Assembly: GCF_004010195.1 (NCBI RefSeq)
Contig: NC_057749.1
Coordinates: 9,746,196 to 9,768,026, forward strand
Origin: Chiloscyllium plagiosum
Taxonomy: Eukaryota
Direction of reading: 5' to 3'
DNA length: 21,831 bases
Position numbers and translations under genes: made by a program. The notes beneath the pieces are model-generated. The model did not search any database. It was not told where the DNA came from and saw nothing but the letters and a program-made list of their open reading frames with translations. This document shows positions 3,376 to 21,831 of the stretch, piece by piece. Position 1 is the first letter of the stretch; every line of letters begins with the position of its first letter.

Positions 3376-3887
3376 AAGGGTCTCAGTCACCTGAATATAT
3401 GAAGCCTTCCATTTCGGCAGTTAAAAAGTTTCAGCCCATACAAACAATCTATGCCCTGCCAGTCAATAGACATTGGCCTTTTCAGTCAATGAAATCATGA
3501 GCTCAGTCTGCAAACATGTATGAAACAGTCACCCACTCAAAATATTAAAATCAAGTGCCACAGAAAAAGAACCAGTTCCCTTGTTTCAAGACTCTTTGCA
3601 GCCATCCTCCTTGTGGATCACTGCAGAACAGGCCTACATTTCAGAGCTCCCACAGGACAGCGAACAAAGGAGTCACACAGAAAGTGTAACATCTGGACAC
3701 TAAGAGTTCATAGTGTATGCCAGCTGTGGATGTGGAATCAGGAAAAGCAGGCATTATAGAGTGGGCCTTTAATTTATCAATTCATGAACATCTTTCAAGT
3801 GCAATTATGGAAGTGAAAAATAAATAACTATAATACATTTTTGCCTTAATGCAGGATATTCTAGAATGCCCTCGGCTCTTAGCATTA

Positions 3888-5259: not shown

Positions 5260-6360
5260 TTGAGCACAAAAATCATAATGGGGGTTCCAGTGCAGGTCTG
5301 AGGGAATGATGAAGTTTTGGAGTTCTCATCTTTTAAGAGAAGTCCCAAGACTTCTCTTAATTTAGTGCCATGGGATCGTTCACATTCACTATTTCAAAGA
5401 AAAATAGTTATTGTCCTGGTGAGTCTGGAAATTGAATTGGAGGCTGGCCATAAGTGGTTAATCTAAGATTTTGCTCATGTTGATTTATTTATTTATACGT
5501 TGTTCTGATGAAATCAAAAAACATTGCGTTTCTATTATGCCCTTTTGACTTAATGTGAGCAATGCAGTTGACCCTCCATTTACAATGCTATCAAATTCTG
5601 ATGTCATCTTTCCTCTTTCAATGGATGTTGCTCAATCTGAGGAGTTTTGGCATTTTCTATTTTGTATTTTCAGAAATTCAATAATCAAAGTATTCCAATA
5701 TAGCATAAATTCAAATTCACTGTGATCTACAGAAGAGAGTCTTCATGTTTTTCAAGAGCACTTTGGAAACATTTTTGTGGTTAACTTAAATTTTCAGTTA
5801 AATCTAACTTTAGCTTTGGGTTCTCACCGTTTACTGGAATTCCAATTCCCTGCTATCATTGTAAATAAGGCTGACGGAATTTTTAATGTAAAAATTTGAC
5901 AGAATAGATACAATATCATTTTTGTGGGTGAAGGTGCTTTTCATCCCAGTGCACACTTGAAGGGTGTAACTCTAATCATGATCTACCATCACCTATGACA
6001 CAAAGAATAGCTCAACACAAACCAATACCAGAGAGGGTGTGACGTAAAAATGGGAAAATAAAAAGCCATCACAGAGCATATAAAAGCCAAAGTATAAAAT
6101 ATGAAAGTTTGCAATTAAGATATATTTGCAAAATCAAAAAGCAAGTCAAAACTGTAGAAATCTGATCATTAATTTTGAATGCATACTTGCCTAGTGATGC
6201 TGTCACAGCTGTTCCTTGACTGACCAGGAGAATACAATACACATCATGGCCATTCTAAATACAAGAGTGAAGCTCAATCATTATTTTGTAAAATGAACCA
6301 GAATGTTAATTTGTAAATGAGAATATGCATTGCCACAATCTCAACATGGCCACTGCTCAC

Positions 6361-6486: not shown

Positions 6487-6755
6487 CTGCTCAGAAAAAG
6501 GGGCAATTAGTGAGGTAGTTAGGACTTTTTTCTGAGCATGTGTCTGGTTCAATGTTTTTCTAATTCATTTCAGGGCTACATCTTGCTTGGATGCTTTAAT
6601 AAAATCATGGGCAAATAACTTCTGTCATATTGTAATATTTGAGTTCAGTGAGCCGATGCCCAAGAATTTGTTGGCAACATTATTTCCGTGCACACACTGA
6701 TGCTGTGCCACCTTGCGGTGATGCGGTCAGTAAATGTAGCCTTTAAAAGTGCAAT

Positions 6756-8226: not shown

Positions 8227-8580
8227 GGGAGATGATGGCCTAGTGGTATATTGTGAGACTATTCATTCAGAGCAATAATTAATTTAGAATCCGCTAAGGT
8301 TAGCTGATATTATCTGTTTTCTGTTCTGGGGACCTGTGTTTGAATCTTGAGTTTGAATTCAATGAATATCGGGAATTAATCTACTGATGACCATGAAGCC
8401 ACTGTTGATTGTCATAAAGCTATCTGGCTCAATAATGTCCTTTAGGGAAGGAAATCTGCCATCCTCACCTGGTCTGGACTGCACGTCACTCCAGAACCAT
8501 AGCAATGCCCTCTGAAATGGTACAGCATGTGACTGAATTGTATCAATTGCTATGAAGTCTCAACAAAGAAATGAAACTAG
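8227..8580 (+). mobile_element. tRNA-derived shark SINE, copy 2
   Basis: It has an A box TGGCCTAGTGG and a B-box-like GTTTGAATC, then GAGTTTGAATTCAATGAA, TGATGACCATGAA and TTTAGGGAAGGAAATCTGCCATCCTCACCTGGTCTGG, shared with the copies at 997 and 13262. About 45 bp of AT-rich sequence is inserted between the boxes. The 3' boundary is approximate. Confidence 0.75.
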
Positions 8581-9144
8581 AATAGATCACATATTAATTG
8601 GGTGACCGTTACAATCAATAAGTATCAATAGCGGAGACCAAGCCCTTTATTGTTATACAACAAATGTTCTTAGCCTTGTTAACTGGATTAGTACAATGGA
8701 TACTTTCCCCTTGTTAGCTGACCTCGCAAACTGAATATTTCCAATATTGTTAAATGGCTAGACATAATGACTGTTTTTCCAACTTTTTAACCCATTACCC
8801 TTGTCTCCAGGATGCCATTGTTAACTGTAAGTACTTAACTGATCAGAGTGATGCTCAGCTGAACCTCTTGCTTCACAAACTCAACTCAACTCTTTCCCTG
8901 TCTGCTTATACCCCATACACATTCTCAAAGGCACTAACTGTTCAACCAAGATTAATTAATATAAGCAACAAAAGGTAAATTGAAGTTGCAATTTTATCAT
9001 GTTTAATGCCTTACTGAGTTTGGTTTATGACAGACTGGTCAAGGAGATGACAAAGTCAAGAGCTGCCTTTAGGCTTGGATTTCAAAGTAACACTTTATTA
9101 TATGTAACTACCAAATGCTATTGTACATGACAATGGTAGTTATA

Positions 9145-10557: not shown

Positions 10558-11280
10558 GATAGAGTCATACAGCATGGAAACAGACCCTTGGGTCCAACCA
10601 GTCCTTGCTGAACATAATCCCAAACTGAGCTAGTCCCACTTGCCTACACTTGGCTCATATCCTCCCCAAACATTTCTTATTCATGTACTTGTTCAAATGT
10701 CTTTTTAAACATTGTATCAGTATCTGCATCTGCCTCCTCCTCTAGAAATTCATTCCACACATGGGCCACTGCCTGTGTTTTTTAAAAAAAGTCTTTTTTT
10801 CCAAAAAGCTTCCTCCTCTACCTTAAAAATATGTCCCTAGTCTTGAAATCCTCCACCCTTTGGCCATTTGCCATTCACCCCTCAAAATTTCAGAAGCCTC
10901 TATAAGGTCACCTCTCAACTTGGCCGCCAGTGAAAAAAATCCCAGCCTATCCAGCTCTCCTTAAAACTCAAGCCCTCCATTCTGGCACAATCCTGATAAA
11001 TCTCTTCTGAACCCTTTTCAGCAAAATAATCTTCCTATTATAAAGCATCCAGAACTGAGCATAGTACCCCGAAGGGACCTCATCAATGTCCTGTACAACC
11101 TCAATATGATGTCCCAAGCCCTATACTCAGGTGTGAGCAATGAAGGCAAGTGTGCTAAATGACCGCTTAACCACCCTGTGAAGCAAATTTCAAAGAATTA
11201 TGTACCGGAGCCCCTAGGTCTCTTTGTTCTACAGCACTACCCAAACTCCTACTTTTAATTGTATAAATCTTGACCTTGTT
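10558..11280 (-). mobile_element. CR1-clade LINE (HER1-like), 5'-truncated 3' end, second copy
   Basis: On + it starts ATAGAGTCATACAGCATGGAAACAGACCCTTGGGTCCAAC, homologous to 2104-2142. It stays colinear with 2100-2890 throughout. Confidence 0.8.
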
Positions 11281-12608: not shown

Positions 12609-12715
12609 AGAAAATGAGGACTGCAGATGCTGGAGATCAAAGTAGAGTGTGTGGTGCTGGAAAAGAACAGCAGGTCAGGCAGCATGAACTGCTGTGCTTT
12701 TCCAGCACCACACTC
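12609..12715. mobile_element. Penelope-associated fold-back repeat
   Basis: GAGTGTGTGGTGCTGGAAAAGAACAGCAG is followed about 15 nt later by its near reverse complement, CTGCTGTGCTTTTCCAGCACCACACTC. It shares GCTGGAA.AG.ACAGCAGGTCAGGCAGCAT with 21654-21683. Confidence 0.65.
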
Positions 12716-13170
12716 GCAACCATTAATGCATCAATAACAACCTGTTATTGGCAGCATGATATGATTCGGGTTAAGCCCATGAGAAATTATTATTGTTTTG
12801 AGTTCTTATCAGAGCAGGAATGTACAAAGCACTTTTATGGTCTCCTTAGCTATTAAACAGCATGTGCACCCAGCATGACTACATTCTTCTAACTTTTCAT
12901 ATGCTTGAAGTTCTGGATACAAAGTTATTAGATGTTCCGCATTCTGATTTGTCCATTGGTATGAACCTCCAATGCTGACAAAATTTAAAGCAGTGTGCTG
13001 GAAATGGGTTGCAATGGATGGGCAGAGTTGCCATGTACCCCACAGGGGTGTCTCCGTTTCAGCTTTAGAAGAGTTCAGACCTAAATAATGAAAGAAGAGA
13101 GTGTTGGCTTGTCTTTGCCATTTTTCAAGAGCATGGCAAAGACTCTCTCTGGTTCCTCAGAACAGACACT

Positions 13171-13672
13171 TTCTCGAAGTGTTTTTAATCCTTTGGGATG
13201 CAGGTATTGCTGTATTTACCCTTGAACTGTGTGGCCTGCTCAGCCATTTCATAGGGCATCTGGAAAGCAATGGCCTAGCGCTGTTATCGCTAGACTACTA
13301 ATCGAGAAATTCAGCTAATGTTCTAGGGACCCGGGTCATGGGTTCAAATCCCACCATGACAGATAGTTTGAGTTTGCATTCAATGAAGAATGTAGAATTG
13401 AGGGTCTAATTATGATCATGAAACCATTGTTGATAGTCAGAAAGACCCATCTGGTTCACTAGTATCTTTTGGGAAAGAAAATCTTTCATCCTTACCTGGT
13501 CTGGCCTAGATGTGACTCCAGATCCACAGTAATGTGGTTGACCCTTGACAATTAGGATGGGCAAAAAAATACTGGCTTAGCCAGAGACTCCCCCATCCTG
13601 AGAGCGATTAATAAAAAAAAAGAGTTAGCCATGCTCCTGAGGGCTTGGAGTAACATGTATGGCCAGACCAGA
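13171..13672 (-). mobile_element. Older antisense copy of the same tRNA-SINE family, split in two (about 13171-13260 and 13621-13672) by copy 3
   Basis: The reverse complement of 13621-13672 (TGGTCTGGCCATACATGTTACTCCA..GGCTAACTCT) aligns with 13497-13546. The left part GCCATTTCATAGGGCA is the reverse complement of TGCCCTCTGAAATGG seen at about 8506-8520. Confidence 0.6.
13262..13621 (+). mobile_element. tRNA-derived shark SINE, copy 3 (full length)
   Basis: It has an A-box-like TGGCCTAGCG and a B box GGTTCAAATCC. The body is shared with copies 1 and 2, and it ends CCCATCCTGAGAGCGATTAATAAAAAAAAA. Confidence 0.8.
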
Positions 13673-14466: not shown

Positions 14467-15435
14467 CTGGGTGAAAAATCAATCTCCGTTCTCACTGGCA
14501 TAACTGTTCTGAACACACCGACAGAATCAAGGTGTCGAGCTTCCCTTCTGTTTTTGCTGTGCATGTAGAATATTACTTTATTCAATGAGTTCTGTTAAGC
14601 TAATCTTTTCACAAAAGCATCTTCCACAATCTCCTGTTTAAACCAGAATAATTTCCTATTTTTAAGTACACAGTCTAACAAATAATTAGTCTTTAAAGTG
14701 TTATTGTGTGTCATTGGTGAAAAAGGCAGGTTTTCATCAGCTTGTGGATGAACTGCTAACACAACATCCTGAAACTCCCAACGTATTCTGGAGGAAGATT
14801 GATTTCCACAGTTGACATTAAGTACACTAGTTGCTATCTCCAAAATTCCACCTATATGCCATTTATGACTATTTTAAAATAAACCTAGCAATCTGGTAAC
14901 ATCATCTTTTATTCACTTAGAACCTTCAAGATAGCACACCTCCAGCTGTGCACTTCAGTGGGGCTAAGACTGATCCAGCATTCCACCACTTCTTTCCAAT
15001 GCTCGACAATTCTTCGTGTTGAACAGATGCATCTGCTGAGTAAGTTGGAAATGTTACCGGGTAGGGATGCTTCAATTTTCCATGTGCAAGTATTTTGTCT
15101 GTAATTTGCAAGTGAAAATAGTTTTCTCGATTACTGTGTCCTGGACCAAAAAGGATTTGTTTCCTGCTCGGGCCAATTTCCATATTGTAAGTGCGAGAGA
15201 AGTTACCTCTGAATGAAGTATGCTTTGCTCATCCTGAACTAATTACTGTGCAAGACTGGGACCAATCATCTAATAAGAAAAGAATTTTTTCCAATCTGTT
15301 TCCTTCCAAAGTACAAGATGCTACTTTTGTTGAGTCATATCTGAACAGAGAAGTGGTTTCATGAAACTGTAGGTTTGTTCTGAATTATGTAGTTCCGAAT
15401 TATGGGTTCAATTTTAATTTCTCTGTGTGAACTAA

Positions 15436-15477
15436 CTTTTGGCTAAGATCAAGTGTAGTATCGGTTCTTGTCAGTTT
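15436..15477 (+). ncRNA. U2 snRNA fragment (nt 14-55), not a complete gene
   Basis: CTTTTGGCTAAGATCAAGTGTAGTATCGGTTCTTGTCAGTTT matches vertebrate U2 CTTTTGGCTAAGATCAAGTGTAGTATCTGTTCTTATCAGTTT at 40 of 42 positions. It includes the branch-point recognition sequence GTAGTA at 15455-15460. Confidence 0.93.
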
Positions 15478-15620
15478 TGCGAGTCATCAGAGCTAGTGGA
15501 GATCATTGCTGATCGTGATTGGACGTTGGAGGATCGTTTGGTTGTGCTGACCTGTTACTGGTGGATCTTCATGCTGGCTTCAGCCTAACGCCAATTCAGG
15601 GACCAGCCAGCCTCCGAGCT

Positions 15621-17208
15621 ATGGCCTCAACAGCTGCTCGCAACACAGTCAGAGTGACTGTCAAGAAGGTAGAGGAGTGTACACCAGTCGATCGGACGGT
15701 GTTCGTCAAGAAGATTTTGCTTGAGTGCTGTGGGTTCGCCGCAGCGGACGTGTACTGCCTGCAGGATTTCCCTGGGGCAGGCTACTTTGACGTCACTTTC
15801 AGGAGCGTGAAGCAATGCGAGCAGCTCCTGAAGGTCTTCAAAGAAAAGGAAGGGGAGCCGCTGTTCTCCATCATGTCGGCGGTCCTGTTGTGTGTGCTTC
15901 CTGCACAGAGGAATCGGGTTGTTACAATCCACATGTACAACCCCTATGTTCCAGCAACCGATGTCCTGACGTTCCTGAGAAGATATATGCAGGTTGAGGG
16001 AGAAAGCGCCGATGTGGTTGACCCTTTCAGGATCTGGACCAGCAAACGACAGGTCAAGGTAACCCTGAGGGTTGATACCAGTGGGAACATCCTCCACCCA
16101 CTCTCCAGCTTTGCTATCGGAGGGAGCAGAGGGTACCTGACTTACGCAGGGCAGCCGAAAGTGTGCCGAACCTGCGGGAGGTCAGGCCACATGGCGGACT
16201 GCAAGGTCACGATCTGTCGGAACTGCAAGAAGGAGGGCCACCCGACCAAAGAATGCAAGGAGGCCAAGAACTGCAGTCTGTGCAGGGAGGCGGGCCATGT
16301 GTACAAGGCCTGCCCAAGACGAGAGGCCACCACCCACGCGCAGCTGGCCAGGGATGGGCCGCAAAAGGACAGCAAGGCATCACTAACCAGCAAGGGAATG
16401 GTGTCTGGGGGCACGCAAAAGGAAGGACAGGCCGGAGCAGAGCAGATGCCAGCTACCGGAGAGGTACAGCGGCTGAGCGAAGCTCCGACAGGACAGACAG
16501 AGGAGGAGGAGGAGAAGGGAAAGAAGGAGGCAGAGGAATGGATCCCAGTACAAAACAGGAGGAAGAAAAGCCGCCAAGCCACCAAAACCTCCCAGAAAAG
16601 GGGGAAACGGCAGCTGCATGGGGAAGACATGGACAGCTCTTCGGAGGGTTAGGACGGGCTCACGGAGGGTCGTCACCAAAAGAAGAGGCAGAGCGCTGCA
16701 GGGAGAAAGGAGGGCAGCACCTGCCAAACAAGGGATGAAACAAGGGGGAAATGACCACCCCCCACCAGCTGACAGCCCCTGTTGTGTGTGCTTCCTGCGC
16801 AGAGGAGTCGGGTTGTTAAGATCCACATGTACAACCCCTATGTTCCACCAACCGATGTCCTGACGTTCCTGAGAAGATATGTGCAGGTTGAGGGAGAAAG
16901 CACCGACTTGATTGACCCTTTCGGGATCTGGACCAGCAAACGACAGGTCAAGGTAACCCTGAGGGTTGATGCCAGTGGGAACATCCTCCACCCACCCTCC
17001 AGCTTTGCTATCAGAGGGAGCAGACAACGTGGACCCTGGTCCTGGCCCAATGACACCGGAGCGGGCAAATGGGCCCAGTGAGGAGCTGGACAGCTACCTC
17101 AGCCCAGCGAGGGTCCAGCAGTTCGTGTACACCATGGGGATGCAGACAGCTACTGCAGAGGGGCAGGACCAGTGGCAAATGGACGCGGGTAACCTCACAA
17201 CTTGTTAA
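15621..17208 (+). pseudogene. Tx1 ORF1 (ZCCHC3-like nucleic-acid-binding protein). Open 15621-16652, then disrupted. Probable native stop is TAA at 17206-17208
   Basis: It starts at ATG 15621 (MASTAARNTVRV), followed by an RRM-like region (YFDVTF, VTIHMYNPYV). The knuckles are CRTCGRSGHMADC (one residue short), CRNCKKEGHPTKEC and CSLCREAGHVYKAC, then an acidic/basic linker (EEWIPVQNRRKK). There is a TAG at 16650-16652 and an inserted duplicate at 16778-17024. Confidence 0.85.
16778..17024 (+). repeat. Diverged 247-bp second copy of ORF1 segment 15884-16130
   Basis: Both copies run from CCTGTTGTGTGTGCTTCCTGC to AGGGAGCAGA without gaps. I counted about 14 substitutions by hand. Confidence 0.95.
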
Positions 17209-17210
17209 AA

Positions 17211-20200
17211 ATGGGTATAAAAATTGTAAGTATTAATGTGCGCAGCATAAAATCTGCTGCGCGATGTGTTTCAACGCTGGCCTTCCTGGCCAGTGTCAAA
17301 GTCGATGTCCTGTTTCTGCAGGAGTGTGGAACACCACACCTCAGCAGTTCCAGGAGATGGTCGAGCTTGTGGGCCCATGGGCCGTCAGTTTGATCGGGGG
17401 GCAACGATAACCGCTCCTCAGGCCTGGGTATTCTGTTGCGAAGAGGCAACTCCACCACCTCCGAGGTTAAGGAGGTGGTGGGCGGGTGCCTCCTCGTTGC
17501 TGATGTTACATACAGAAACGCTCCCGTGAGACTAATCAACGTGTACGCTCCAACGGGTAAGAGTGAACGGTTGGCCGTCCTGCAACAGCTTCCATTGTTG
17601 CTGGCTACGTCCAGGCCGGTCATTCTGGCCGGAGACTTCAACTGTATCATTGATGCAGATGGAGGATCCGGCGGGGGAGGAGACAGTAAACTGGATGCCA
17701 CGTCCAGAGCCCTGATGGAAACGGTCAAAGATGCCAAGCTGCACGATGTCTTCAGCACCCCTGCAGACGGAGCGCAGCATAGATACACCTGGTCATGGGC
17801 TGACGGGTCTATCCGCTCAAGGATAGATTACATGTTTGTGTCCCGAATGTTCTCGGTCAGAACCACCGATGTCAAGCCGGTGTTCTTCTCTGGCCACTGC
17901 CTCCTGCTGTCTGACTGTCACCTACAGGCTGAGCAGCGGGCTGGTAAGGGAACGTGGAAACTGAACACTAAGCTGTTGACCCCGGGAAACATCGAGGAGC
18001 TCAAGAGGGATTACGCAGGTTGGAGAACCGCAAAGCCCCTCTTAGTCCCCAGCGGACTGGTGGGAAACAGTAGAAGGGAACATCGAGGTTCTTCATCCTC
18101 AAAGGTGTTCAGGAGGCGAGAGAGAGCGACGAGGAAAACTGTCCCAGCTCCAGGAAAGTATGCAGAACCTGCTCCTGCTGCAGACGTTGGGAGTTGATGT
18201 CAGGGAGGACCTCAAGGAGGTGAAGGGCCAGCAAGCCTCGCTCTTTGCTTCGGAGGCCTCCAAGATAATCTTCTGGCCCAGGGTCCGCTCCGTGGAGCAG
18301 GACGAGACATGCTCATGTTTCTTCTTCCAGAAGGTGCACAAAGAGAGCTCCGTGCTCAGCAGCCTGAAGGAAGAAGATGGCTCGGTAACGTCATCTCAGG
18401 CTGACATCATGAGGATCAGCAAATTCTTCTATGCCGGTCTGTATGACTCGAAGCCAACCGACAGCGCAGCCTCCCAGTCGTTCCTGTCCTCTATCACGGA
18501 GGTCTTAGACGATGGAACACGAGCGAGGCTGGACCAGCCGCTATCTCTGGATGAGCTGACCAAGGGCCTCGAGTCCTTCGAAAAGAATAAAACTCCTGGA
18601 AGCGACGGCTTACCGGTCAAGATCTATTCTGCTCTTTGGGACGATGGGCCAGGACCTGCTGGAGGTGTATGTCAGTATGCTTCAGGCAGGTACCATGAGT
18701 GAATCCATCACGAAAGGCATCATCACCCTCATCTACAAGCAGAAGGGGGAGAGGGAGGAAATTAGAAATTGGAGACCAATCTCACTGTTAAACACAGACG
18801 ACAAAATCTTGTCAAAGGTCATCGCCAACCGGGTCAGGTCTGCTCTGGGATCGGTGATTCACCCTGACCAAACCTGTGCTGTGCCGGGCAGGAAGATCAC
18901 TGAGTCTCGCACTCCTCAGGGATACGATCGCCTACGTGCAGGACAGAGGGTTGGACACCTGCCTGATCAGCTTGGACCAGGAGAAAGCCTTTGACAGGAT
19001 ATCGCATACATATATGAGGGATGTCCTCTCCAAAATGGGCTTTGGGGAGGGAATCTGCAATTGGATCAGACTGCTCTACACCAACATTGTCAGTGCAGTC
19101 TCAATCAATGGGTGGGAATCAGATAGCTTCCCTGTAAGATCTGGAGTCAGGCAGGGCTGCCCTCTCTCTCCTGCCTTGTTTGTGTGTTGCATCGAGCCAC
19201 TTGCCGAATCAATCAGGAAGGATGTGAGCCTGAGAGGGGTGACTATTCCTGGCAGTGGGGGCCTGCAGGTTAAGGCCTCCCTATACATGGATGACGTCGC
19301 CATTTTCTGCTCGGATCCGCTGTCCGTGCACAGACTCATGTGCTTCTGTGACCAGTTCGAGCGGGCCTCAGGGGCCAAGGTAAACCGAGGCAAGAACGAG
19401 GCCATGCTCTTCAGGAACTGGGCTGACCAATCCTCTAACCCCTTCACCGTCGGGACGGACCACCTGAAGGTGCTGGGTATTTGGTTCGGGGGGGCTGGGC
19501 CGTGCGCCAAGACCTGGGAGGAGCGGATCAGGAAGATGAGACAGAAACTGGGCAGATGGGAGCAACGGTCGCTCTCCATTGCCGGGAAGAACCTGGTCAT
19601 CAGGTGTGAGGTACTCTCAGTATTGTTATATGTGGCACAGGTCTGGCCTATCCCCAGAACCTTTGCTCCCGCAGTCTCCCGGGCCATCTTCCACTTCATG
19701 TGGAGATCAAAGATGGACCAGGTCAGAAGAGACACAATGTACAAAGACCTGTGCAATGGGGAAAAAACATGCCCAATGCCACCCTCGCCCTGATGGCCAC
19801 CTTTGTGTATGGCTGCATCAAGCTGTGCGTGGATCCCCGGTACACAAATACCAAGTGTCACTAAGTACTGAGGTTCTACCTGTCCCTGGTGTTGTGAAGG
19901 ATGGGCCAGGCCTCGCTGCCGCGGAACGCTCTGAGTAGTTGGACCACTCCGTTCTCTTTGTGGAGAAATTTATGAAGAAAATACCTTTGACCACAAATCC
20001 ATCAGGAAGTTGTCAGCACGTAGTGTCCTTGAGACCCTTCAGGAAAAGGAGAGGGCGGATCCTATCGAGCGGTTCCCTGAGCAGACTGTCAAAGCCATTT
20101 GGCAGAATGCCTCATCGCCAGATATTTCCAACAAGCACCAAGACATGGCTTGGCTGGTGGTGAGAAGGGCTCTGCCTGTGAGATCCTTTATGCATGCCCG

Positions 20201-20600
20201 GACTCTCAGCCGCACCGCACGCTGCCCTCAAAGCGGCTGCAGTGGGGACGAGACTGTCACACACCACCTTCTGGAATGTGCCTATGCAGAGGAAGTCTGG
20301 AGAGGAATGCAGGGGCTTGTCGAGGTTCGTCCTGAGCAGCGCCGTGACGCAGGACTCCATGCTCTGCGGCCTGTTCCCCGCGACGCACACTGAGACGAAC
20401 ATCAACTGTGCCTGGAGGATCATCAACTCGGTGAAGGACGCTCTCTGGGCCGTCCGAAACCTGTTGATCTTCCAGCTGAAGGAGTTGACCCTGACTGTTG
20501 CAGACTGGCACTTTCCAAGGTCCAGGACTACGTGTTGAGGGACGCACTGAAGCTTGGGGCAGCTGCCGTCAAGGCGTGGTGGGGAAAGACCACCGTGTAA
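17211..20600 (+). pseudogene. Tx1 ORF2: APE endonuclease, reverse transcriptase and zinc finger, disrupted
   Basis: APE motifs: SINVRSI, LFLQE, NVYAP, GDFNC, RIDY, and SGH in place of SDH. RT motifs: KTPGSDGLP, NWRPISLLN, SLDQEKAFDRI, GVRQGCPLSP, and LYMDD (YMDD at 19284-19295). The zinc finger is CPQSGC..ETVTHHLLEC and the ORF ends WGKTTV-TAA at 20598-20600. Stops occur at 17391, 19862 and 19895, plus several frameshifts. Confidence 0.93.
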
Positions 20601-20766
20601 CATCTGCCTGCCTAAGAAGAACAGGGAGTCCACGCAGTCATTTGGGCTCTGCTGATGTCTCAGCTAAAAATGTAATCGTACAGACCTGTAAATAGGAATG
20701 CACAGAAATGGAATGTTTACGTATGTATGGCATGTCCAATTGTACAGATCATCAAAGTATTTTATG

Positions 20767-20803
20767 AATAAAGTATATTTTTGAAATAAAAAAATAAAAA
20801 AAA
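20767..20803 (+). terminator. Polyadenylation signal and A-rich tail of the Tx1 element
   Basis: AATAAA lies at 20767-20772, followed by AAATAAAAAAATAAAAAAAA at 20784-20803. Confidence 0.8.
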
Positions 20804-21086
20804 CTTATAGTGACGATCTTAAGTTTACTAATTGGATAAAGATTGAATAGGGGAAAGCAGAAAATTAAATGTTTATCATGAGTTTTGAAGTATTGAAGCC
20901 TTAAAGTCAATGGATAGAGTAGTTGGTTAGTTAGTTACTGAGGCCCAATATGGATATTTAACCTTGACATTGTATTATGTGATGATGCTGCTCCTTTAAC
21001 AAGGTTAAGTTGTCGTTTTTTTTCCCCAGAAGATCATAAAGACACAGGCTCCAAAGTGTCTGGGTTGATCTACTTGAGGAAGCTTT

Positions 21087-21215
21087 GGGGATGGGCGGGG
21101 GCAGGATTGGATAGGGTTTAGGGCATGGATGGGGTTGGGCAGGGTTGGACGGGGTTGGGCAGTGTTGGATGGGGGGAGGTGTTGGACGGGATTGGGGGCA
21201 GGTGAGGGCGGGGGC
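21087..21215 (+). repeat. G-rich degenerate repeat with G-quadruplex potential
   Basis: There are more than ten GGG or longer runs with short spacers, built from units like GTTGGA(C/T)GGGG and GGGCAGG. Confidence 0.7.
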
Positions 21216-21373
21216 TCGCGCGCGCTGTGCTGCTGCCTAGTCTGAACAGGGAGCAGACTTAATAGAAAACTCCGAACTCCAGAAAAAGTCATTGAATCGA
21301 TTAACCAAATAATCAATTATCCGAGCGAAATAGTTCCCACCCATCTCGTTCGGATAATCGAGGTTGCCCTATA
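21216..21373. mobile_element. Right end of a Tigger-like non-autonomous DNA transposon
   Basis: It has a subterminal inverted pair ATTATCCGA..TCGGATAAT and ends CGGATAATCGAGGTTGCCCTATA, resembling Tigger/pogo ends (..CGAGGT...CTG-TA). I did not find a matching left TIR. Confidence 0.45.
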
Positions 21374-21435
21374 AATCTTTTCCAGTCTGTGTTACTCATG
21401 TCACTGAACACCTCCATTTATCAAGTGTTGCAAAT

Positions 21436-21647
21436 GTGTCAACAATCACGTTTTCTCGTCCTGCTACATGTACCATTTTCAAATTGAATGGCTCTAACAG
21501 GAAGCTCCATTTAAACAGTCTGGAATGTTTGTCCTTAAATCGTGTCAACAATCACGTTTTCTCGTCCTGCTACATGTACCATTTTCAAATTGAATGGCTC
21601 TAACAGGAAGCTCCATTTAAACAGTCTGGAATGTTTGTCCTTAAATC
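21436..21647. repeat. Perfect tandem duplication, 2 x 106 bp
   Basis: 21436-21541 and 21542-21647 are identical (GTGTCAACAATCACG...TCCTTAAATC). Confidence 0.97.
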
Positions 21648-21650
21648 TTT

Positions 21651-21758
21651 ATTGCTGGAACAGCACAGCAGGTCAGGCAGCATCCAGGGAACAGGAGATT
21701 CGACGTTTCGGGCACAGGCCCTTCTTCAGGAATTCCTGAAGAAGGGCCTGTGCCCGAA
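21651..21758 (-). mobile_element. Penelope-like element terminal repeat fragment with an inverted duplication
   Basis: It is homologous to 12655-12685. It contains a perfect 52-bp palindrome (21707-21758) and a hammerhead core. Confidence 0.7.
21692..21738 (-). ncRNA. Minimal type I hammerhead ribozyme
   Basis: The minus strand reads CAGGAATTC-CTGAAGA-A-GGGC-CTGT-GCCC-GAAAC-GTC-GAATCTCCTG. It has the CUGANGA and GAAA cores, stem II GGGC/GCCC, a GUC cleavage triplet, and stem I CAGGAATTC/GAAT(C)TCCTG. Confidence 0.7.
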
Positions 21759-21831
21759 GCCTATCACTGATAAGCCCATTCTTTTCCAAATATAAGTAGA
21801 TTTTATCCCTCAGTACCTTCTCCAGCAACTT

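Follow-up and report, generated by a model that had tools for sequence, protein, structure and literature searches.

Keno elements are Tx1-clade LINEs specific to U2 snRNA genes (KenoDr1, KenoFr1 and Keno-1_SSa); under Kojima's criterion, a preference for U2 genes means that these make up more than 20% of the flanks. In the consulted parts of the literature, the Keno nick and the 3' junction of both Keno and Utopia were placed at U2 nt 38/39 (PMC4640811, PMC6136364), and reptile Utopia elements were described as duplicating 20 bp at that site in U2 (PMC4640811). The consulted sections of the crocodilian study (Kojima 2015, PMC4494074) described, among the Tx1-Mar elements, a U2 head in Tx1-11_Crp and U1 heads in Tx1-2_Crp, Tx1-2B_Crp and Tx1-4_AMi. 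These snRNA-headed families clustered with Keno; most of the group targeted a Mariner transposon, and Tx1-4_AMi preferred LTR retrotransposons. U2- and U1-headed families of Keno-related Tx1 LINEs outside snRNA genes are already on record in that source, and the locus analyzed here is a further example. Nothing specific on Tx1 or U2 in sharks was found in the portion of the literature that was consulted.

The window (the whole 21.8-kb stretch that was analyzed) contained a Tx1-type LINE with an ORF1 and an ORF2 of the APE, RT and zf-RVT type (Table 1). The first-pass annotation had placed the element at 15420..20815. Both ORFs were found, confirming the LINE, but its limits were narrower. Direct reading put the last base of the A-rich tail at 20803 and the first base of the flank at 20804, so that the element spanned 15436-20803. 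With both ORFs included it measured 5.4 kb.

Table 1. Features of the U2-headed LINE, with positions counted along the window
Feature	Position	Strand	Basis
U2 snRNA-derived head, U2 nt 14-55	15436..15477	+	Rfam U2 model and blastn
Remaining 5' UTR, 143 nt	15478..15620	+	Direct reading; no U2 likeness in sequence
ORF1, 343 codons followed by a premature stop	15621..16652	+	Pfam; shark ORF1 alignment
Internal 247-bp duplicate of 15884-16130	16778..17024	+	94% identical; repeat search, Pfam PF23058 (1.7e-23), tblastn
ORF1 C-terminal remnant, shifted frame	16969..17193	+	tblastn, P0138 residues 371-446, 51% identity
ORF2	17211..20600	+	Pfam, tblastn frame map, ORF list
APE endonuclease in ORF2	~17211-18035	+	Pfam PF03372 (3.9e-11)
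RT in ORF2	~18560-19790	+	Pfam PF00078 (2.6e-26)
zf-RVT in ORF2	~19935-20390	+	Pfam PF13966 (6.4e-11)
3' UTR with AATAAA motifs and A-rich tail (~20784-20803)	20601..20803	+	Direct reading

The G+C content climbed from about 38% to about 55% at the 5' UTR that follows the U2 head. The presence of this UTR and of the start of ORF1 suggests a complete LINE part, completeness of the UTR being read from the sequence itself rather than from a family consensus. Two ZCCHC3-type RNA-binding domains and CCHC zinc knuckles were recognized in ORF1 (Pfam PF23057, 1.8e-18; PF23058, 1.9e-23; PF00098, 1.7e-4). When a shark ORF1 of 450 aa (P0138) was aligned with the window, the alignment passed through the ORF1 stop and reached 16727. 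The internal duplicate was an extra copy of the second RNA-binding domain of ORF1, lying within the ORF1 C-terminal region. Homologues of ORF2 (P0122, P0005 and P0004) aligned by tblastn as a series of five or more pieces that differ in frame, showing that ORF2 is broken. The copy is therefore dead, with ORF1 both stopped and interrupted by the duplication and ORF2 in pieces, and a function for this dead repeat is not likely.

Two trees of hand-chosen RT rows were used to place the element. In the first, built from 67 of 190 extracted rows, the window RT fell inside a 10-row clade (100/96) that was sister (99/89) to a 19-row teleost clade (100/100) holding two metagenome loci, L001 and L002. 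In the second, built from 47 rows (seven newly extracted), the cartilaginous-fish clade of the window RT (100/95) joined an amphibian clade (99/95), and these two together were sister to the teleost Keno clade (93/88). Before the trees were built, 19 of 80 loci were dropped for having fewer than 230 aligned residues or more than one stop, and 17 of 146 proteins for having fewer than 270 aligned residues. Named Repbase Keno entries were absent from both trees, and no family name was found for BAD04856 or BAC82621; within this sampling, the sister position to a clade with verified U2-resident members supports assignment of the element to the Keno lineage of the Tx1 clade, and the Keno-like Tx1 identity proposed at first pass held in both trees.

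The loci L001 and L002 were verified to lie inside U2 genes, with U2 nt 1-26 adjoining their 5' ends. The A-tail of L001 adjoined U2 from nt 39 onward, a part that Rfam scored at 108 bits, and the locus was set in a U2-U5 gene cluster. Verified Keno junctions with U2 were thus at nt 26 in L001 and L002 (a 12-base deletion) and at nt 41 in L005; none was at nt 55. Another locus, L010, contained a verified U2 gene (190 bits) and a U1-resident LINE that repeated about 15 bases of U1. The copy in the window resembled these Keno elements in its ORF1/ORF2 domain architecture (RNA-binding and CCHC domains in ORF1; APE, RT and a C-terminal zinc-binding domain in ORF2, all by Pfam), in the position of its RT clade, in carrying at its 5' end U2 sequence that covers nt 38/39, and in its 3' end, L001 likewise ending in AATAAA and an A-rich tail. 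Its ORF1 was homologous to that of L001 (29% identity, E 7e-36). However, it lay outside a U2 gene and had no 3' U2; its U2 part ran to nt 55 and lacked nt 1-13, whereas L001 and L002 carried nt 1-26; and the RT identity to L001 and L002 was only 43-44%.

The U2 origin of the 5' end was observed with two methods. When the verified U2 gene of L010 was compared with the window by local blastn, U2 nt 14-52 matched 15436-15474 at 37 of 39 positions (E 9e-13), and this was the sole U2-like match at E < 0.1 across the 21.8 kb. The Rfam U2 model matched 15414-15615 with 26.1 bits (E 0.0019 in 401 bases searched), a score below the U2 gathering score of 46 bits. The confident columns of this alignment covered approximately U2 nt 21-55, and the posterior was low past nt 55. 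Against the Rfam consensus the match extended to nt 55 (15477), with two mismatches at U2 nt 41 and 48. Both the branch-point recognition sequence and the nick site published for Keno fall within the head. A weak snoU2-30 match on the minus strand was merely the complement of the U2 piece.

No other part of U2 was found beside the element. In the 40 nt upstream of the head, the best ungapped match to U2 nt 1-13 was 7/13, a value equalled by 805 of 2313 background 40-nt windows, and the pairing of 15414-15425 with U2 nt 1-12 proposed by Infernal was no better than chance. On the downstream side, a search of 20700-21400 that admitted matches up to E 10 returned nothing U2-like, showing that the 3' flank does not resume at U2 nt 39. 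Across the whole window no Rfam match attained the gathering score of its family, and there was no snRNA gene in the 21.8 kb. The earlier description of the locus, with a head of U2 nt 14-55 at the 5' end of the element, nt 1-13 missing upstream, an A-rich tail with no further U2 behind it and a position outside any U2 gene, was borne out on each of these points.

The insertion showed no target-site duplication: no word of 6 or more bases was common to both flanks, and the best likeness was a 5-base match, or 8/10 at an offset place. The 5' boundary was consequently placed by the U2 match alone. None of the 44 flank ORFs in the rest of the window matched a Pfam family or a transposase. The two flanks had no direct or inverted repeat in common and neither was copied elsewhere in the window; a non-coding target repeat is possible. 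A repeat search found no second copy of the element within the window.

As drawn from the published description rather than from sequence alignment, a close likeness is to the crocodilian Tx1-Mar families, which are also Keno-related Tx1 LINEs with a U1- or U2-derived 5' end, dispersed outside snRNA genes (PMC4494074, in the sections consulted). They differ in host (crocodilian rather than cartilaginous fish) and in target, since those sections describe insertion into Mariner-N4_AMi or LTR elements, whereas the flanks here held no repeat, inverted repeat or transposase. Their heads are also described as family-wide, whereas a single copy was seen here.

We put at roughly 55% the probability that the copy is a dead retrotransposed Keno-lineage LINE at a non-U2 site, whose leader is target sequence transduced from a U2-resident progenitor. 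Behind it we infer a progenitor in a U2 gene, co-transcription, a 17-bp duplication and 5' truncation. The progenitor would have sat at the canonical Keno site, where the bottom strand would be nicked at nt 38/39 and the top strand cut near nt 55, a geometry that would produce a duplication of about 17 bp. Being promoter-less and co-transcribed from the U2 promoter, it would give an RNA starting with U2 sequence to nt 55. When such a chimeric RNA entered another U2 gene, the leader would merge with the target; when it integrated elsewhere, the leader would remain joined. U2 nt 1-13 would then have been lost by 5' truncation. That a U2-promoter chimera from a U2-resident source landed off-target is plausible, and the cover of the nick site fits.

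Transduction is favored because the head, of all small RNAs, derives from the lineage's own target and includes nt 38/39, and because the copy shares its domain set with the U2-resident L001, has a homologous ORF1 and is placed beside the U2-resident clade by its RT. The relatives make an snRNA target duplication of about 17 bp credible, given the ~15 bases of U1 at L010 and the 20-bp duplications of Utopia. The figure of 17 bp is nevertheless an extrapolation, since the verified Keno loci meet U2 at nt 26 or 41 and not at nt 55. Co-transcription with the target is discussed as a mechanism for such elements in the consulted part of the crocodilian study (PMC4494074). R2 in 28S rDNA may by analogy serve as a model for leader acquisition, as a promoter-less, target-specific LINE expressed within its target transcript (PMC4494074, same sections), although it belongs to another clade and has another endonuclease. 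Further observations count against transduction: transcription from the U2 promoter should begin at nt 1, yet nt 1-13 were missing; only a single copy was seen, with no U2-resident family member; and the insertion had no target-site duplication.

The leader may have been gained by the immediate parent of the copy, or further back in time and be now fixed in a dispersed family like Tx1-11_Crp; we consider these about equally probable, leaning slightly to the earlier gain. A stronger form, in which a dispersed multi-copy Keno-derived family of cartilaginous fish left the U2 genes with U2 nt 14-55 fixed as its leader, independently of the crocodilian Tx1-Mar, is a tentative possibility on which we would not rely. 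If it were true, target-specific LINEs would have a recurrent escape route in carrying off part of their target as a 5' leader, and the branch-point-recognition segment might be retained for RNA stability, RNP assembly or residual homing.

Template switching is an unlikely but serious competitor. On reaching the 5' end of the LINE RNA, the RT would have switched to free U2 and copied it from about nt 55 to nt 14, the chimera having formed in this copy or in the ancestor of a subfamily. This mechanism was proposed for the U1/U2 additions on SINEU and for the heads common to Tx1-Mar families, and the author of the crocodilian study prefers it for comparable heads; additions that arose independently more than once, their 3' ends varying by up to 22 nt, are documented for SINEU/Tx1-Mar in the consulted sections (PMC4494074). 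The seemingly full-length LINE part, with its 143-nt UTR and ORF1 start, is as expected after a jump from the end of the RNA. However, a switch could fall on any point of any small RNA that is abundant, yet the head comes from the U2 target of this lineage and takes in the Keno nick site; and copying of free snRNA should usually attain nt 1, yet nt 1-13 were absent. SINEU, the crocodilian SINEs with U1/U2 heads, resemble the copy in having a U2 5' head that does not always begin at nt 1 (PMC4494074, as described there), but they are short and non-coding, whereas the copy is of full LINE size with both ORFs. Chimeras made by L1 (e.g., U6-L1) are likewise single insertions with an snRNA piece joined 5' of a LINE; according to the same sections they are products of template switching, typically with a 5'-truncated LINE (PMC4494074). 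Here, by contrast, the LINE seems complete and is joined to an snRNA piece that lacks the snRNA 5' end and belongs to the target of the lineage, so that neither mark of an L1-type chimera, an snRNA reaching its own 5' end and a LINE truncated at the joint, was found.

It is highly improbable that the element is a remnant in situ, inserted in a local U2 gene or retropseudogene whose upstream 13 nt and downstream U2 were later lost. The 247-bp internal duplication shows that the copy was rearranged elsewhere, and the invisible target-site duplication would also agree with such losses. However, two separate clean deletions would be needed, both sparing the element ends and the A-tail, and no trace of U2 or of an snRNA gene was found around the copy, unlike in the U2-U5 cluster of L001. 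A chance similarity to U2, or unrelated sequence joined in assembly, would accord with the Rfam score below gathering but is scarcely credible for a near-identical match, the only one in the window, whose place coincides with the 5' end of a LINE from a U2-targeting lineage.

With transduction as the preferred reading, the value of the copy is that of a molecular fossil, in that its leader, which includes the nick site, ties a non-U2 LINE of the Keno lineage to the U2 target. Such a leader, linking a LINE to the target of its lineage, favors the view that snRNA heads derive by 5' transduction from a master copy resident in the target. A transduction origin of this kind may extend to SINEU and the snRNA-headed Tx1 families of crocodilians, though template switching was proposed for them.

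Part of the stretch was contained in 20 of the 24 listed sequencing runs; among those listed, no RNA run contained it. In DNA-type runs from three organism codes, 0.33-0.48 of the sampled words were present, a word content that hints at a family that is multi-copy and common to related species.

By direct reading of 15000-21831 and an Rfam scan, a long coding repeat was found to begin with a U2 snRNA-derived stretch. The segment 15300-15700 matched the Rfam U2 model at 26.1 bits (E 0.0019 for the stretch; gathering score 46), with confident columns covering approximately U2 nt 21-55. When the verified U2 gene of metagenome locus L010 (190.5 bits) was used as the reference, its nt 14-52 aligned locally with 15436-15474 at 37/39 identity (E 9e-13); the match reached nt 55 (15477) when the Rfam consensus was used. 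No second match of the L010 gene below E 0.1 was found within the window. U2 nt 1-13 were absent upstream of the head, where the best ungapped match was 7/13, a level equalled by 805 of 2313 background windows; the apparent Rfam alignment of 15414-15425 with the 5' part of U2 was therefore attributed to chance. Nothing U2-like was found after the A-rich tail. The first-pass annotation had described a U2 head at the element start, missing nt 1-13 upstream and no remainder of U2 behind the tail, and all three points were borne out. The whole window contained no Rfam family at gathering score, and the weak minus-strand match to snoRNA U2-30 was rejected as a snoRNA gene, being explained by the complementarity of the U2-30 guide to U2.

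Features of the window and of snRNA-resident comparator loci
Sequence	Feature	Position	Details
Window	Element proper	15436-20803	U2-headed LINE
Window	snoRNA U2-30 match	15439-15495, minus	23.9 bits, E 0.024
Window	5' UTR		143 nt, directly after U2 head
Window	ORF1	ATG 15621; premature stop 16650-16652	two ZCCHC3-type RNA-binding domains, CCHC knuckles
Window	Duplication in ORF1	16778-17024	247 bp, 94% identical to 15884-16130
Window	P0138 C-terminal part	16969-17193	different frame
Window	ORF2	start 17211	APE, RT, zf-RVT domains
Window	3' UTR	end 20803	AATAAA motifs, A-rich tail
Window	92-nt repeat	1151-1242; 8427-8518; 13454-13545	three diverged copies, 66-77% identical
Window	Further repeat pairs	2440-2835; 10878-11129	
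Window	Shared motif	12642-12720; 21653-21760	~31 bases, 94% identical
Window	G-rich units	21090-21200	loosely repeated; GC skew up to 0.78
Window	Tandem duplication	21436-21647	106-bp unit, two copies, 100% identical
L001	U2-U5 snRNA gene cluster	74-99; 5807-5960; 6549-6665; 8698-8723	
L010	LINE within U1	491-507; 6094-6146	U1 nt 1-17 immediately 5' of element; A-rich end adjoins U1 from nt 3
L026	LINE within U1	3607-3621	
L037	LINE within U1	6083-6097	

The U2-headed LINE is a dead copy. The alignment with P0138, a shark ORF1 homologue, continued past the premature stop, and alignments of ORF2 with homologues broke into at least five consecutive frame pieces. The internal duplication placed the second RNA-binding domain of ORF1 in the ORF1 C-terminal region; it may be either private to one copy or a subfamily trait. 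Both G+C (~54% in the element, ~39% in the flanks) and CpG observed/expected (0.55 against 0.23) exceeded the flanks, indicating that the insertion has not decayed to background.

Metagenome contigs were scanned with an RT alignment, yielding 80 loci; RT segments were retained from 61 of these and from 129 of 146 proteins. In the 190-row FastTree phylogeny, a 23-row clade united the window RT with amphibian proteins and adjoined a group that contained loci L001 and L002. An IQ-TREE run on 67 hand-picked rows supported the window and amphibian clade at 100/96 and placed it as sister (99/89) to a 19-row teleost clade (100/100), which included L001, L002, Takifugu BAD04856 (sister of L001) and Danio BAC82621. 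When 47 rows were used, seven of them from RT-query protein matches including Heterodontus and Callorhinchus, a cartilaginous-fish clade (100/95) was sister to the amphibian clade (99/95), and the teleost Keno clade joined these two as their sister (93/88). Locus L005 lay outside this group in both IQ-TREE phylogenies. Grouping of the RT with elements confirmed as U2-resident supported the predicted Keno-lineage assignment, in trees without named Repbase Keno or Tx1-Mar (crocodilian Tx1) sequences.

L001 and L002 were the two best loci (43-44% identity) and were confirmed within U2 genes, with 5' ends adjoining U2 nt 1-26. The A-tail in L001 adjoined U2 from nt 39 onward (108 bits in Rfam), followed by a U5 gene and the next U2 nt 1-26. 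Two successive U2 genes in this cluster both began with nt 1-26 and continued into Keno sequence, showing that adjacent U2 copies were both occupied; each insertion carried a 12-base target deletion (U2 nt 27-38). The 5' end of L005 was immediately preceded by U2 nt 1-41. These junctions agree with PMC4640811 and PMC6136364, in which Keno and Utopia have a common 3' flank from U2 nt 39.

The ORF1 protein search returned nine matches, the named ones including Chiloscyllium (69% identity), Heterodontus (55%) and Cetorhinus (45%); the other five were unnamed gene models from a single eukaryote protein set. The unaltered 311-aa RT query matched fragments of seven named shark and ray proteins at 61-88% identity, and 21 gene models of a single eukaryote protein set were among the 120 matches listed. 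Among full-length proteins, those of amphibians scored 50-54% and those of teleosts 42-45%. Judged from protein similarity, the shark and ray matches indicate that the lineage is spread through cartilaginous fishes.

The first-pass annotation had proposed that a U2-resident Keno-like copy was retrotransposed to a non-U2 site. This reading was supported in part: the lineage and the non-U2 location held, given the RT trees and the lack of an snRNA gene, and the U2-resident source is favored at a probability of about 0.55. A U2-resident progenitor would have passed on the head by 5' transduction. This reading is preferred because the head derives from the snRNA that the lineage targets, includes the nick position (nt 38/39) and extends 17 nt past it. 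Such an end is what a target-site duplication would give; the U1-resident LINE of L010 has a duplication of similar size (~15 bases), and 20-bp duplications are made at this U2 site by reptile Utopia (PMC4640811). Against transduction, the junction with U2 lies at nt 26 or nt 41 in the verified Keno loci, the head lacks nt 1-13 and one copy was observed. A template switch to free U2, the alternative published in PMC4494074, is rather unlikely; it predicts neither that the head should be the element's own target nor that it should span the nick and end 17 nt beyond. An in-situ U2 remnant is improbable, and chance similarity or misassembly is scarcely credible. The head may have been gained in the immediate parent of this copy or further back, becoming a leader fixed in the family; signs that the family has many copies and occurs in several species (word shares of 0.33-0.48 with sequencing runs and many dispersed gene models in the RT-query matches) lean slightly to the latter.

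Crocodilian Tx1 families that co-cluster with Keno have been described, their targets being a Mariner transposon or LTR elements; snRNA heads are present in some of them (Kojima 2015, PMC4494074). There, 5' snRNA additions are described as having arisen repeatedly and independently, and template switching as well as transcription starting in the flank are discussed. A literature search at listing level found nothing specific to shark Tx1 or U2. The element, a dead copy, adds a new cartilaginous-fish example to the snRNA-headed Tx1 LINEs that are related to Keno and lie outside their target gene.

A different Tx1-type LINE lineage was observed within U1 snRNA genes. L010 had a U1 duplication around the element and an intact U2 gene 230 bases upstream. 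The same A-tail and U1 junction occurred in L026 and L037, and the elements in L026 looked tandem with a U1 piece as sole separator. No U1-specific LINE is listed in two 2015 papers on such elements, so this lineage may be unreported.

No target-site duplication of at least 6 bases was found at the element's flanks, and no repeat, direct or inverted, was detected between the two flanks or between them and the remainder of the window. Pfam searches of 44 ORFs across the window outside the element returned no families and thus no recognisable gene in the flanks. The 92-nt repeat is probably a SINE-like family. The shared motif adjoined a near-perfect hairpin with 39-nt arms at the first site and, by eye, a palindrome of ~48 nt (near 21709-21756) at the second; the two sites resemble copies of one short repeat that carries a hairpin.
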